Assembly (NCBI GenBank): GCA_963719085.1
Contig: CAVRAL010000004.1
Span: 1,056,001 to 1,120,000 of the forward strand
DNA: 64,000 nucleotides
Origin: a candidate division FCPU426 bacterium
Lineage (GTDB): Bacteria > Oederibacteriota > Muellerivitia > Muellerivitales > Muellerivitaceae
Direction of reading: 5' to 3'
Shown: positions 42,001 through 51,000 of the stretch, piece by piece
How the letters are laid out: the number at the start of each line of letters is the position of its first letter
Position numbering within the stretch: the first letter of the stretch is position 1
Made by a program: the position numbers

Positions 42001-45000
42001 CGGCGAATTGTTTTGACCATTTTGGAACCACGCTTCATTCTTCCGAGGATTGGGCGGTTTACAACTTGAAGTTCACCGATTTGACCCGGGAAGGCTGGGG
42101 CGCGCCGGTCACGCCGCCGGATTTGATTGATCATTTGAAAGAATTCATCAATTTATCATGGAACAACAGCGCCAATAACACGGCGGGAAGTTATCCGATT
42201 GACTTCTGGGTGGATGACGTCGAGTTTTTCTAAAAAGTTTCGAACCGTTTAAACGACGGGACTAATTGTCAAACGAGAGGTTTTTTTGACTTTTCGCTTT
42301 CAAAACCTATTGACGGCCTTTTTCGTCCTTGTTTTTGGGGGGGCGATCGTTTCCGGGGCCTTCGCCGATCCTTTCGCCGATGTCACGGCGGATCAAAGTC
42401 TTTACCAACGGGTAAAAAAGTTGGGGGACGATGGTTTGCTGGATGCTCAAGACCGGGCGGTGTTGGATCAAGGCAAGGTCGTGAGCCGGCTGGAACTGGC
42501 TTTCTATACGGAAAAGGCCAAGGCCCGCATTGAAGCGCCTGAGCTGGCCCAGCCGGCGATCGCCACACCCACGCCGCAAGCCTTGCCGTCTCCCGTGATT
42601 TTGGCGCCCACGGCCGTGCCGACCGCCGCTCCGCCTTCCATTTATCCGTCGGCGGACAAGCAAGAAATTGAGGAACTGCTGAAAGAATTCCGCACCGAAT
42701 CCGTGCTTCTCAAGAGCCGTTTGAGCCTGGATGACACGCGCATCAAGGAACAAGAGGATGAATTGGACAAGCTCAAGACGGTCCAAGACGAAGTGGACGA
42801 GATTTGGAAGAAAGCCAATAAGTCCTCGGGAATCCCCAACCTTTACACCAACATCAATATGCGGGTGGAAAATATCAGCCTGTCGGGCCCGCTGACCCAG
42901 GAAAACGCCACCCGAATCCTTCAAGAAATTTACGTCGGAACCTACTCCGACCTGGGGGGCAAGGGCACCCTTTCGGCCGGCTTGGGAGCGCTGATTCCGG
43001 TGGATGGCGCCAACGCCTCTTACCAGCTTTTGGGCGTGGGAACGCAGCCGGTCTCGCTTTATATCGGGAATCCCAGCGTCACTTTCTTTAACTACGGGGA
43101 CCTGGGCCGGTGGGACACCACCTTCGCCGTGGAAACCTACCAGCCCGACACCAGCTTCGGGGCTTTCAGCCGCGGCTACGCCAATTACGCCATCAAGCGG
43201 TTTGAGGATCCTTTCGACATTAAAAATTTCAATGACGATAAAGACGCCAAAAACTGGGACGATTACATGAATCAGGTCAGCTATATCCCGGCCTATTCCA
43301 TGTCCGCGGGGAACGTGCAATCGGCGAACGACCGCGTGTTTGACGGCATGTACCTGGCGGGGAAGCAGGTTCCGTGGCTGGGTCCGGACGGGCGCATGTG
43401 GGTATTGGTGGGCCGCATGGGGACCAGCCCTTCCCAAACCCAACGCTGGGAAGAGGGCGCCAAAATCATGGAGCCTTGGGCGAATAATTTAGTCACGACC
43501 TCCATTTCCACCGAATGGGTGAACGATAACTTCGGCGTGAACCAAGCGCCCCAGCTGGATATGAAGGATTACGAGTTGGAGTTGAAACTCAACACGCCCG
43601 TGGCCGTTGATGTGGACGCCGGATTCTCCCATTTTTCCACTGGAGTGGACATCCTCAACCCGGCGGTCACGGCCGCCAATCCGGAAGCTTTGGAAGCCGG
43701 CGCGGGGCAGGCTTCGGTGGCTTATTATCCCTTCACGCTTTACGGCTTCGCGATCAGCGATGAATACGCCGACTTCCAAAGTAAGGTCACCATGAGCGGC
43801 CTTAACTTCGCCCGCTACGGCCTTTATTTCAGCCCCTCGGACTACAACGACGCCTATGGTTCCATCGGGGAGGTGGACAATCTTCAAAGCGACCGTTACG
43901 GCTGGCGCCTCAATGTGGGATGGGACGGCCGCAAACAGGATTGGATGAAGGAATGGCCCTCCTTTTTGGATACTTTCGTCGTCAATTTCGACGTGTCGCA
44001 GAAGACCGAATTCACCTCCGAGGTCAACAACGAAGGCGTGACCTCGGGTTACAACGAGATCGAGCCGACCCAAATGTTGAGCTTTTATTATCCCGACGAC
44101 GAAGGGCTTTGGGGCTTGAACCTCTGGGGCAATTATTCCCCCAACGTGAATCCGGTCCGTCAGGACTACATCAATAATATCGAGGACATCCGAAACGACG
44201 GGGACGTGTTGAATGATGATGTGCGCTATCAGTTCCGGATGACCAATGAGAGACTGCCTCTCATCATCCCGATTTATTCAGGCCCCGGAACCATCTTGAC
44301 CGACGGCAATGGCCATAATGTTTACTACAACATCACCAATATCAAAACCTACAACTACATCACCTTGACGACCAAACTGAAGTTCGACAAATGGTTCAAC
44401 CTGCCTCGGCCCCTGGATGGTTCTTTTTACATGACCGACAACGTGGTTTCGGGTTTGGCGTCCCAGGCCAATAACGCGCCGCTTCCTGCCGGCGCGGACC
44501 CCGCCTCGAATACCGAACTTCCCATGTCGGGCGCGATCCCGAACTTGTTTGAGCAGCGGGTCTTCAGCGGCGCCTTGATGGTCAGCCTAATGGACGACGT
44601 GGACTTGATGGCCGATATGGGATTGGAAACCTGGCGCAGCGCCTATACCTACCCCCAGGTGGACTACCAAACCCATGAGTACGGGCTGGGTGTCGCTTAT
44701 GACATCCCTTGGTGCGGGGGGAAAATGGAATTGCGTTATAAGCATATCGATTTCAATGATAAGTACGTCCCGGATAATGATTATTCGGGTGATCAGTTCT
44801 TTACCAAAATTAAGTTCATGTTTTGAGGATTGGGATGAAATTAACGGCTTCTCAAAATTTTAAAGGCTTTGGAACGGTTCTAAGCTTCGCGCTGGGCGTC
44901 CTCAGCTTCGTCCTCGGCTGCGCCTCGCCGGCGTGGGCGGACCATGGCAAGCTCGCGTCCGCGGACCGGGACGCTTGGATCAATTGGGATGTTTCCGAAC

Positions 45001-48000: not shown

Positions 48001-51000
48001 TACACGCCTTTAACCCTTTGGAACCGGGATAATTTAGACCTGCGCTATAAACCCGAAATGATCGCCCGGGAAGACGATACTTTGAAATACGAAAGCTTTT
48101 TAAATAACGAGCCCAATTGGCCTTTCCGCGGCGCCCGGGCCAGCACGGAACTTTTGTGGCCCAACTCGGATCTGCTGGACCGCTTTAAAATTTCAGTGAT
48201 GGCCGACATGATCGCCAACGGTTTCAACGACACCACGGGACAGGCTTTTTATTACGGACCGGATAATTTCACCGACTTTATTTTCGGCGCCGACAGCGAG
48301 CTCAAGTCCAAGCGCTGGTATTTGGGCGGGAACGCCTCGATCCAATTGGCGATGGACGCCTACGCGGTTGTTTTGGCCGAGCCTTTGGGCACCAACCAAC
48401 CCAATTCCATTTACGTTCAATTCAATCCCGATACTTGGGCCCATCATTATCAGATCATCAGCTTGAAGCCTTCAGTGGACTTCGGGCTGGGGGATGACGC
48501 GTCCTTTGGGGGCGTTTGGGAAGGCGCTTCAGCGGTTTATCAGGACGATGAGCGGGACAATAATAAAATTGTCAGCGATTACGCCATCCTGGCGGGACCT
48601 TACTTACGGTTGGGCCATTCCAAGCTGACCTTCAACTATCTTTATGTGGGACCCTATTACTATTCGCCCCTGGCCCAGACCCGGCAGGATGATCTGGTCC
48701 CGGGTTCCAACGCGCAAGGCGCCGCCACCCCCGAGCTTTTCGACGCTCCCCTGCGCAGCCAGTTTTTCCTGAACGGCATCCCCCGCGCCGGCGGAATCTT
48801 CGGTTATTACGACCGCACCCAGGACAATACCTTCCCCTATGGGTTGGCGACTCCCAACCGGCAGGGCGCCGGGCTTGATTTGGACGTGAAAACACTTGAT
48901 AAAGACGCCCTGCAAATCTTGGGGTCGATCTACTTTGTTCAGGAAATCAGTGATAACCTTGTGGAAGAGAGCCAGGGCGGGGTTTATGTTCCGGTTCCGG
49001 TGGACGGGACCGCGTCGGCCCCGACCCCCCAGCGCAGTTTCACTTACGTGAATGTGGGACCCTCGTTGAACCTGGGGCCCGCTTTGGGCTTGGACCAGGA
49101 TTTAGTCGTGGGAACCAACGCCCGGTTCGAGCAGACCAACAGCTCGGTCGGCACGCTGACCAGCGCCTGGCTTTTAGGCGGAGTGCAGGTGGGGTTGTTC
49201 CCTTGGTGGGAAATGGCGGCTTCCTATAGCGACCAGGAAATAAAGGGCCATGACACCGGCATTGGGAACACCACTTTGGCGAGGTATTCGTATATTTTTG
49301 ATAATTCGGATTTTGGTTCTTACAACGTTTTTACGATCGACGGCAGCAACCAAAGTTTCCGCTTGTCGAGCGTGTTCAAGATCAACCGCAACTCGAGCCT
49401 TTATCTGGATTACGACCTGACCGGCGGGGACGCGGTCCCCTACGTGGGGTCCACGGCGCCGGGAACGAAGCTGAACAACCAGTACCTGGAGATGACTTAT
49501 GAAATCCAATTCTAAACAACGGTGGTTCGGCCGCGTGAGCGGCGTCGCGGGCTGCGTCGCGCTCTTGGGCGGGTTGGTTCTTCTGTTGAATTCGGGCTGT
49601 CAATCCAGCGTCCCGGGTTTCGGGAATTATGCCGCCCCCAACTCGGTGCCCAACAGCAACCGGGTGGACCAGTTCGCCACCGGAAGTATCGCCATTAATC
49701 CCAACCTTTTCGAGGACAACAACCCGCCCAGTTACGTCTTGAAAACGCCGGGTTCGGTGACCTTCGTGAATAATTTCCCGACTTACGGATCCGGCAGCGG
49801 CCAATTGGTGCCGGGCGCCGGCGCGGTCAGCCCCTACGCTTACCAAATGTCGGGCGCGGTGACGGATTTGCTCGACAACACTTTTCCGGCCTTGGATTTG
49901 GAAATTCCGATGGAAAATTACACTTATTACGACGCGAATCATTTTAGCGGCGTCAAGTTTTACCTGAAAGTGGCCGATGATGATACGGCGGCCCACCGGG
50001 TGTTCGCCATCCCCGTGGCGCAAACCGTTCCCACGGGAACCAACAACGGCACCTGCCCGGCGGGGCCCAAACGCTGCTACGATCATTTCGCGGCGGACTA
50101 CAGCGGCGGCACCGGGGGCCAATGGCTTCTTTCCAGCTACAATTTCAGCGATCTCCAACAGCTTCAATCCGGCTACGCGCCGGTGGTCCCCACCTTGACC
50201 GGGGATAACGGGGCCAACTTGAAACAGACGCTTTGGCTGCAATGGGAAGAAGGAAACAACAACAAAAAGCCGGGTCTTGCCACGATCGATGTTTATGTGG
50301 ACGATATCGAGTTTTTTTAAAACAGTGGTAATTTTAAAGCAAGGTGGCTTGGGCAGAGCCCAAGCGGGGAAAGTGGCTATGAACAACAAATCAGTTTTAA
50401 TTTTGGGCTTGGCGTTATTGGGCTTGCTCCAGGGATGTACGGAGAAGCTTCCCTTATCCAATCCGAATCTTATCTTGGCCCAGCCTTTGCCCGTCACGGT
50501 GGTCTCCGACTTTGGCAACGCCTCCTTGAAGACAAACCCCACGCTTTTTGACAGTGAAAAGGGTTTCTTTTTGGATGGATCCTACGCTTATAAAACGGAC
50601 AGCGGCTTGCAGCTGACGACGCCGCTTGTCAGCGCTTCCTTTCCCGATCCCAGCAACAGCCCCTACGCCTTGCATCTTTTCGGGACCTACATCGACTATG
50701 GCAACGGCGGTTATCCGGCCTTCGAACTGGAATGCTTTCCCCGCGCCGACAGCCAATTTTACGACCTCACCTCTTTCGCCGGCCTGACCGGCATTGAGTT
50801 CGACTGGTGCACCGGACCCACGGACAACTCAAATCAATACTTTTTTTGCCTGATCACCGCCCGCATCGCTCCCCAAAGCATCGGCGGGGATGGAACCTGC
50901 GGCACCCCCGGCGCCGTGCCTTGCTACGATTACCTCGGCAATTCGCTTTTTGGGACGGGCGGGAACTGGTTCCAGCTTCAGCTGCCTTTCAGCAATATGA

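Follow-up and report, generated by a model that had tools for sequence, protein, structure and literature searches.

Three consecutive genes in a 64,000-nucleotide window of DNA from an uncultured soil bacterium of candidate division FCPU426 encode long proteins that join an SLH-like domain to a large beta-barrel, and the question they raise is whether such proteins serve mainly to hold the outer membrane to the cell wall or do something else there. The genome-wide survey's note had described them as OmpM-type tethers outside Terrabacteria. All three open reading frames, like the other features of the cluster, lie on the + strand. Gene 1 (type A, 42286..44826) encodes 846 aa comprising a signal peptide, an SLH-like domain (42364..42534), a proline-rich linker, a helical stalk (42649..42822; model helices 97 to 154) and a barrel of ~22 strands ending in Phe (42838..44823), this last assigned from the model, fold matches and homology to orthologs of Cytophaga hutchinsonii CHU_1276. 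Gene 2 (type B, 44823..47138, with a likely start at ATG 44835) encodes 771 aa with an SLH-like domain at 44940-45107, a linker, an OmpM-like stalk at about 45210-45368 and a CHU_1277-family barrel. Gene 3 (47089..49515, likely start ATG 47122) is a type B paralog of 808 aa, with an SLH-like domain at 47239-47391, a linker, a stalk at 47539-47694 and a CHU_1277-family barrel at 47710-49512.

Much of the architecture given in the survey's note is borne out. The three neighboring proteins do have signal-peptide-like N-termini, and the models of genes 1 and 3 (pLDDT 72 and 74.5, respectively) show the expected series of SLH-like helices, disordered proline-rich linker, long helical stalk and large barrel, for which ~22 strands were counted from the DSSP of each model; the barrel architecture of gene 2 is assigned by homology to gene 3. 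The linker between SLH-like domain and stalk is very variable in length. A C-terminal Phe is found in 26/26 gene 1, 21/23 gene 2 (the other two have Tyr) and 27/28 gene 3 family members. The description "three tandem paralogs" holds for genes 2 and 3, whose products share 26% identity across 774 columns (E 3e-40). It does not hold for gene 1, which matches them only in its N-terminal part; the SLH-plus-stalk profile of gene 2 reaches the gene 1 stalk with an E value of 3.4e-7. None of the three proteins has a match in Pfam or NCBIfam. The three SLH-stalk segments predicted as a complex gave a score of 0.00 with the partner fold uncertain, which is evidence neither way.

The divergent SLH domain was recovered with three separate family profiles, made from the gene 1 N-terminal domain (25 sequences), the gene 2 SLH-like domain plus stalk (26 sequences) and the gene 3 SLH-like domain (27 sequences). 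All three rank Veillonella OmpM1 first among 177,635 PDB sequences, with E values of 5.2e-5, 1.3e-5 and 1.9e-5, respectively, and OmpM1 is the sole PDB match at E < 0.002 for each; the next unrelated matches have E values of 0.48, 0.0044 and 0.75. The matches to 8bys and 8bym are restricted to SLH domain and stalk, and the gene 2 profile aligns to the OmpM1 stalk with a domain E value of 0.0045. The gene 1 SLH-like domain, which has a profile match to 8bz2, was also aligned with that structure by VIA (Z 10.1, rmsd 3.4, 81/83 residues, 30% identity), at rank 43 and in the helical range, where Z alone is weak; 8bz2 is not among the best 50 fold matches listed for gene 3. As had been noted, Pfam overlooks the domain: at the gathering cut-off PF00395 matches 0/3 proteins, 0/25 family members and 0/32 genomes of the order, with 4/14 control genomes positive. 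Two canonical SLH matches elsewhere in the phylum were considered as OmpM and rejected, both being TPR lipoproteins.

The residues named for OmpM1 are divided among the chains. The Tyr36-equivalent is present in 26/26 gene 1 and 28/28 gene 3 sequences and the Arg64-equivalent of the TRAE motif in 25/26 and 28/28, whereas the Trp34-equivalent occurs in 0/26 and 0/28. Gene 2 sequences show the reverse, with Trp in 19/23 and Arg in 0/23; the gene 2 protein studied here retains Trp and has Asn in place of Arg. Trp and Arg are thus never together in one chain of the trio, and both occur in some distant type B copies. One could suppose from this that the domain no longer binds the wall and, with the stalk, only drives assembly of a barrel oligomer. 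Its position below Pfam detection in 25/25 members and 32/32 order genomes is consistent with such a loss, as is the variable linker that splits it from the stalk, unlike OmpM1, in which the SLH helix continues into the coiled coil (PMC10628300). A CsaB-family gene (PF04230), which accompanies OmpM in most Terrabacteria, is absent from this genome, as had been claimed, and from 24/32 order genomes, being found in only 8/32. However, OmpM of Negativicutes needs no CsaB for wall binding (PMC10628300), and the near-invariant Tyr36 and Arg64 of genes 1 and 3, together with the mostly retained Trp of gene 2, suggest that the ligand-side residues are still under selection. We consider a purely assembly-related domain improbable.

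The barrels lead to a different family of proteins. Based on profile comparisons, we conclude that CHU_1277 is a homolog of the gene 2 and gene 3 barrels and that the gene 1 barrel is homologous to the product of the gene upstream of CHU_1277, which by synteny is CHU_1276. The gene 2 family aligns with Bacteroidota barrels at an HHalign probability of 99.9 (E 7e-33, 452 columns). With the same Bacteroidota barrel profile, a protein of C. hutchinsonii is recovered at E 2e-198, the cluster of which includes ABG58549.1 (CHU_1277), and CHU_1277 is scored by the gene 2 and gene 3 profiles at E 1e-22 and 1e-14. The type A profile matches the gene that precedes the CHU_1277 relative in 19/23 metagenome loci (E 2e-8 to 1.5e-26), and the remaining 4 loci begin at a contig edge; reversed sequences and the other barrel family, used as controls, gave E > 0.4. 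By HHalign, type A matches CHU_1276 orthologs at 99.65 (E 4e-25) and, in another comparison, at 86.6 (E 4.5e-6), these orthologs being recognized by synteny and CHU_1279 residues, not from CHU_1276's own record: all six aromatic residues singled out in CHU_1279 (PMC12016534) are at their published positions in 4/4 loci checked. A GH9 gene follows in 2/2 CHU_1277-type metagenome loci checked. NCBIfam has no model for CHU_1277, and a single Cytophagaceae query found no match in plasmids or metagenome contigs. Type B barrels are only 20-22% identical to CHU_1277, so their substrate may differ.

CHU_1276 and CHU_1277 are both required for Cytophaga growth on cellulose, and in that cluster form they have been reported for two close relatives. 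Their transport role is itself deduced from mutants. One report (PMC5553014) describes less cell-associated beta-glucosidase activity upon CHU_1277 loss, which would fit barrels that serve as a platform from which surface enzymes and lipoproteins are positioned or exported, not as an import channel, as would the secreted enzymes with FlgD-Ig tails encoded beside distant loci of the phylum and the usher and exporter barrels among the fold matches. Such a platform is very unlikely in our view: the models of genes 1 and 3 contain no chaperone-binding periplasmic domain or POTRA-type domain, the long loops that follow strands 5 and 13 resemble loops that fill a pore, and the poor growth of chu_1276 and chu_1279 mutants on low glucose (PMC12016534) is an uptake phenotype. 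The fold matches of the gene 1 barrel are outer-membrane barrels throughout. The fold matches of lowest rmsd are TonB-dependent barrels, but a plug domain of that kind is absent from the models of genes 1 and 3, in which everything before the first strand is helical or disordered.

The genes around the trio encode lipoproteins. Lipoprotein A (41460..42233, lipobox-like FLTGC) has a putative CIA30/CBM11-like beta-sandwich and is a candidate surface glycan-binding protein. Three paralogs lie downstream: B (49499..50320, lipobox-like LNSGC; family HMM E 1e-60), whose position after gene 3 is conserved, C (50277..51146, LLQGC, likely start ATG 50379; E 3e-38) and D (51363..52148), a recent duplicate of C (51-54% identical). 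A CIA30 domain encoded at another locus in the phylum shares 26% identity with lipoprotein A (E 1e-8), and CIA30 is matched, weakly, by 3/35 family members. A PDB search with the family gave no match, and no homology was detected to CHU_1278 (probability 1.8) or CHU_1279 (probability 0.3). The cluster contains no glycoside hydrolase. It ends before lepA at a terminator-like hairpin (52173..52193; 9 pairs, 7 of them G-C, and a T run), the first of 20 such sites listed where 17.9 are expected by chance; promoter and terminator counts in the region are at chance level, and no RNA holder is listed for it.

The distribution given earlier (31/32 order genomes and, weakly, 5/49 others) was too narrow, since the gene 2/3 barrel family occurs in 64/93 genomes of the phylum. 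The barrel pair extends across much of the Goldbacteria/Firestonebacteria/FCPU426 group, often beside glycoside hydrolases, with the order A-then-B in 14/15 distant loci and A-B-B in 21/25 order loci, the rest being cut by contig ends. Genes adjoining several copies encode GH9, CBM11/CIA30, GH44, GH42-like, sugar-binding and LacI proteins, and GH9 is linked in three distant loci. GH9 is found in 27/32 order genomes, compared with 1/14 controls. The host genome and that of its genus mate both lack GH9, which, like the hydrolase-free cluster and the lipoproteins unlike CHU_1278 and CHU_1279, speaks against uptake; four GH5 and three GH94 proteins are over cut-off in this genome. A FastTree phylogeny of the barrels (65 sequences aligned over 495 columns) resolves genes 2 and 3 into sister clades (0.988) and shows barrel-only forms in at least three places, although the midpoint root is not reliable. 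The main copy, flanked by housekeeping genes from rlmD to lepA, is found in 32/32 order genomes. Universal presence in such a context is what a structural gene would show, and it counts against an uptake role.

This constancy, which includes five genomes without GH9, speaks for a reading in which the lineage relies on the trio as its main OmpM-type tether and general porin, the glycan link being ancestral baggage. Conservation of the SLH-like domain is high (mean column identity 71% and 67%), the gene 2 stalk matches the OmpM1 stalk motif, and the Pal and TolB models score under cut-off here, in agreement with the earlier claim for Pal. However, the earlier account leaves out LolA and the four OmpA-domain proteins of this genome, three of which carry a barrel-like part at the N-terminus; with PF00691 in 90/99 phylum genomes, the trio is not the sole candidate tether. 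The barrel family was not found in 29/93 phylum genomes (including three families in which it matched 0/4, 0/5 and, weakly, 1/11 genomes), and the SLH domain is degenerate or missing in several relatives, some of which lack the entire periplasmic part. Codon adaptation percentiles for genes 1, 2 and 3 (0.86, 0.43 and 0.68) are unremarkable by this crude test. Together with the CHU_1276/1277 barrels, the carbohydrate context and the incomplete Trp/Arg set, the OmpA-domain barrels leave the view of a housekeeping substitute for Pal poorly supported, and we regard a primary tether as unlikely.

What stands of the claim for OmpM-type tethering outside Terrabacteria is the SLH-stalk-barrel architecture in a lineage that is most likely on the Gracilicutes side. 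This placement is based on the type 4 insertions in the RNA polymerase beta' and beta subunits, also reported for Armatimonadetes (PMC11515920), on the presence of LolA and on literature that groups the host phylum with Elusimicrobia, PVC or FCB. Witwinowski et al. (10.1101/2021.05.31.446380) describe OmpM as completely absent from Gracilicutes, in a survey that required a Pfam SLH match and would therefore miss proteins like these. Finding the architecture conserved in an early, probably Gracilicutes-side phylum is relevant to the kind of tether that the last bacterial ancestor had.

On balance, we favor a wall-anchored glycan-uptake system with tethering as a second job. The combination of a Cytophaga cellulose-type channel with a wall anchor previously seen only in the other main branch of bacteria most likely imports fragments of plant sugars and pins the outer membrane to the wall. 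In such a system, as family resemblance and context suggest, surface lipoproteins with CBM-like domains would bind beta-glucan or cellulose fragments; the type A and two type B barrels, homologs of proteins with Cytophaga mutant phenotypes, would conduct oligosaccharides or glucose across the outer membrane with no TonB plug in the channel; and the OmpM-type stalk and SLH-like domain, by homology, would reach the wall and hold channel and membrane in place, a task probably shared with the OmpA-domain barrels. The GH5 and GH94 enzymes encoded in the genome could complete breakdown in the periplasm or cytoplasm. CHU_1276/1277, essential for cellulose uptake in Cytophaga, now appear as an old barrel pair common to another cellulolytic phylum. 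From the shared pair one would expect an A-B hetero-oligomer; it also picks out conserved motifs in Cytophaga, which can be cultivated, and suggests an uptake route for uncultured soil and peat glucan degraders. A bolder version, which we hold only tentatively and think is probably wrong, makes the three chains an obligate hetero-oligomer with composite wall-binding pockets (gene 2 Trp with gene 1/3 Arg and Tyr) and a TonB-independent cellodextrin importer, the anchor predating the Terrabacteria/Gracilicutes split and the anchor-less CHU_1276/1277 being derived from such a form. If true, it would break the reported Gracilicutes absence of OmpM-type tethers and provide the contact-dependent uptake of cellulose by Cytophaga with a structural model.

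Among known systems, Veillonella parvula OmpM1 (8bz2, 8bys, 8bym; PMC10628300) shares with the trio the signal peptide, single SLH-type domain, C-terminal barrel and stalk with the pattern L..L..EF..EL...GV.V..LE.R, and the trio may share the likely dual tether and channel role of its class (10.1101/2021.05.31.446380). It differs in having an SLH domain over the Pfam cut-off, Trp and Arg motifs in one chain, no proline-rich linker between SLH domain and stalk, and a barrel of another sequence family about half as long (321 modeled residues, compared with about 600-660), whereas the trio consists of three different chains, always coinherited. The general-porin-type barrel of OmpM1 has 16 strands, compared with ~22 in the CHU_1276/1277 families. 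By language-model features, the nearest clusters (0.93-0.96) are Deinococcus SlpA and large SLH-barrel proteins of Armatimonadota, Vulcanimicrobiota, Rifleibacteriota and Atribacterota, which also combine SLH, stalk and large barrel. Their SLH domains are canonical in Pfam, and their barrels are alike by fold only, tied with unrelated porins; SlpA (7zgx) matches gene 1 at Z 13.2 and rmsd 8.4, which is unspecific, since many unrelated barrels lie within 2-3 Z units (Foldseek, VIA). SusC/SusD loci likewise pair 22-strand barrels with surface glycan-binding lipoproteins, but the trio has neither a plug domain nor a TonB-receptor Pfam match, and its N-terminal part is a helical SLH-like domain and stalk. 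Compared with the atypical cellulose utilization locus chu_1276-chu_1280 of C. hutchinsonii (PMC12016534), whose barrels have neither SLH domain nor stalk, the trio belongs to another phylum, has type B duplicated, no hydrolase in the cluster and lipoproteins not detectably homologous to CHU_1278/1279. What the two have in common is the homologous barrel pair, with type A ahead of type B and lipoproteins that carry CBM-like domains downstream, and, in some loci of the phylum, GH9 beside it.

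The three barrel genes are adjacent long open reading frames (ORFs) on the + strand: gene 1 (type A; 42286-44826; 846 aa), gene 2 (44823-47138; 771 aa), and gene 3 (47089-49515; 808 aa), the latter two of type B. One lipoprotein gene lies upstream of the trio and three lie downstream, and a terminator-like hairpin ends the cluster ahead of lepA. None of the three proteins is recognised by Pfam or NCBIfam. A paralog relationship joins genes 2 and 3, which are 26% identical across 774 columns (E 3e-40); the resemblance of gene 1 to them is confined to the N terminus (E 0.003; 55 columns in HHalign).

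The single sequence of gene 1 matches the SLH crystal construct of OmpM1, the Veillonella parvula outer-membrane tether (PDB 8bz2), at E 0.039. OmpM1 is the top match of separate family profiles for genes 1, 2, and 3 (E 5.2e-5, 1.3e-5, and 1.9e-5, with the best unrelated matches at 0.48, 0.0044, and 0.75, respectively), and the gene-2 profile covers its SLH domain plus stalk. Superposing the gene-1 model on 8bz2 pairs 81 of the 83 residues, with Z 10.1, an rmsd of 3.4, and 30% identity, at rank 43 of the fold search; 8bz2 was not among the matches listed in the gene-3 fold search. By language-model features, the nearest clusters are SLH-barrel proteins from Terrabacteria-side phyla. Based on these sequence profiles and predicted models, we conclude that the periplasmic part is OmpM-like. 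The Pfam SLH model PF00395 is reached by 0 of 25 family members and found in 0 of 32 genomes of the order Muellerivitales, which matters because the survey that called OmpM absent from Gracilicutes relied on PF00395 at cut-off (10.1101/2021.05.31.446380).

In OmpM1 numbering (PMC10628300), genes 1 and 3 retain Tyr36 and Arg64 but never Trp34, while gene 2 has Trp34 in 19 of 23 sequences and always Asn at position 64. These complementary losses, together with strict co-inheritance, suggest that the proteins may assemble into mixed trimers in which the pockets are composite. Between the SLH domain and the stalk lies a Pro-rich linker whose length varies greatly; among gene 1 homologs it ranges from almost none to more than 200 residues with internal repeats (L007, L008, and L023 versus L029). 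The sole canonical SLH matches in 99 phylum genomes (L087:499-1665 and L088:541-1668) are lipoproteins in which TPR-like repeats are followed by C-terminal SLH repeats.

The barrels have a different kinship. Models of genes 1 and 3 (pLDDT 72 and 74.5) have about 22 strands by our own count, with strands 5 and 13 each preceding a long loop, and fold searches with them return outer-membrane barrels with no clear best. With an E limit of 0.001, a phylum-wide type B profile matches 1,874 representatives. Among the top 150, many consist of a barrel alone, at about 570 aa, and those with names are mostly from Cytophagaceae, including a Cytophaga hutchinsonii protein whose cluster contains CHU_1277, a barrel needed for growth on cellulose. 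The gene-2 family aligns with Bacteroidota CHU_1277-type barrels at 99.9 in HHalign, and pairwise comparisons with CHU_1277 give 20 to 22% identity (E 1e-6 and 1e-8). CHU_1277 is also scored by the gene-2 and gene-3 family HMMs (E 1e-22 and 1e-14), but the gene-1 HMM gives no match to it.

For type A, we sampled at least 23 metagenome loci around CHU_1277 relatives. The type A profile matches the gene upstream of the CHU_1277 relative in 19 of 23 listed loci, and the remaining 4 have no upstream DNA. Because its loci also carry a 374- to 376-aa lipoprotein with the six CHU_1279 aromatic residues at the positions published in PMC12016534 (4 of 4 loci checked), followed by a GH9 gene (2 of 2 checked), we identify this upstream gene as the CHU_1276 ortholog. 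Gene 1 scores 86.6 against the CHU_1276 family with an order-only alignment and 99.65 with a phylum-wide one. Reversed-sequence and cross-family controls for the barrel matches were negative. Shared motifs in these barrel families are TPxT, SxxAQT, and PYGxATxNR. We conclude from these sequence comparisons and models that the trio's barrels belong outside the OmpM barrels. In Bacteroidota loci L147 and L149 to L153, the A-B pair is accompanied by extra lipoproteins, a sugar transporter-like gene, and other hydrolase-like genes (judged by eye), which suggests a role for the pair with several glycans other than cellulose.

Within the order, gene 3 has matches in all 32 genomes and gene 1 in all 26 sampled. 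The A-B-B order is found in 21 of 25 flanked loci (in one, L085, gene 3 is split into two ORFs); contig ends truncate the remaining 4, and additional copies are duplications of the entire trio. Beyond the order, an A-B pair is present in 14 of 15 loci from a sample chosen for weak matches. Of 93 phylum genomes with completeness of 80% or more, 64 have the B family (2 of them weakly); several families gave no match. Some distant copies have a more canonical SLH domain with both Trp and Arg, some a stalk only, and some neither; one distant type B match (G096:C113:2058-4112) contains an in-frame TAG, which, like the split in L085, may reflect assembly error or decay. Of the source names attached to 49 type B matches, three are Goldbacteria and two Spirochaetia.

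Doud et al. equate Goldbacteria with FCPU426, place them next to Firestonebacteria and Elusimicrobia, and report an active GH9 and 24 CBM11 copies; two further papers put the group under FCB or PVC. In the RNA polymerase alignment with E. coli, β' covers 176 of the 188 positions in the type 4 insertion, and β covers 92 of the 98 positions in the second insertion of its E. coli counterpart. According to PMC11515920, the type 4 insertion is typical of Gracilicutes, yet it is found in Armatimonadetes too. Based on these insertions and the literature, the host phylum very likely lies within Gracilicutes. Other sources cited are PMC7031533, PMC11382960, PMC11611037, PMC6247017, PMC5553014, and PMC12057145, with Ji 2014 and Zhou 2016 as cited in them.

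Hand-picked ORFs neighbouring trio or pair copies encode GH9, CIA30/CBM11, GH44, a GH42-like enzyme, a sugar-binding protein, and LacI. Of the 32 order genomes, 27 have GH9; none was found in this genome, which has four GH5 and three GH94. A GH5 gene lies 3 kb past the window end (C4:1123379-1124227), within about 20 kb of the cluster, and within about 65 kb is a 1104-aa protein (C4:1033209-1036523) that includes a CIA30-like domain. All four flanking lipoproteins belong to a single family; a few of 35 members give weak CIA30, CBM6, and SGBP-B matches, and no link with CHU_1278 or CHU_1279 could be detected. RlmD (37457-41302, +) carries a fused C-terminal part of 640 aa without a Pfam or PDB match. 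The fusion recurs in the genus mate (L076, 1278 aa), and sequence matching the fused part immediately precedes the cluster at most main-copy loci; this part may be a secreted hydrolase-like gene linked to the cluster. Nearby, a membrane-anchored 254-aa protein (34800-35564, +) has a Pro/Thr stretch and looks like a beta-sandwich, and a 517-aa protein (35731-37284, -), which has a signal peptide and ends in Phe-Leu, is probably a further outer-membrane barrel; neither has a Pfam or NCBIfam family.

Pal and TolB models fall below cut-off in this genome, LolA is found, and the CsaB family PF04230 (8 of 32 order genomes) is absent. There are four OmpA-domain proteins, one MotB-like. The other three are fusions that (C4:42078-44117, C1:750663-752438, and C1:779530-781887, the last scanned over its C-terminal 607 aa) join a PorV/UPF0164-like N-terminal part, FlgD-Ig, and an OmpA domain, and one of them lies directly ahead of a TPR gene in which one part is weakly TolB-like. 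They are candidates for OmpA-type tethers or for components of a T9SS-like system; the phylum commonly has OmpA-domain ORFs of comparable length.

Domain homologies, gene order, distribution, and companion genes were observed, and from them we propose a mechanism. The lipoproteins would capture glucan fragments, and these would enter, without TonB, through the A and B barrels, which are probably joined in one complex. The SLH domain and stalk would keep this complex on the wall and would therefore contribute to outer-membrane tethering. A literature search, mostly of open-access papers, returned no description of SLH-barrel proteins in this phylum and no link between it and CHU_1276/CHU_1277. 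The trio is a real, conserved hybrid, in which an OmpM-type anchor carries CHU_1276/CHU_1277-type barrels.
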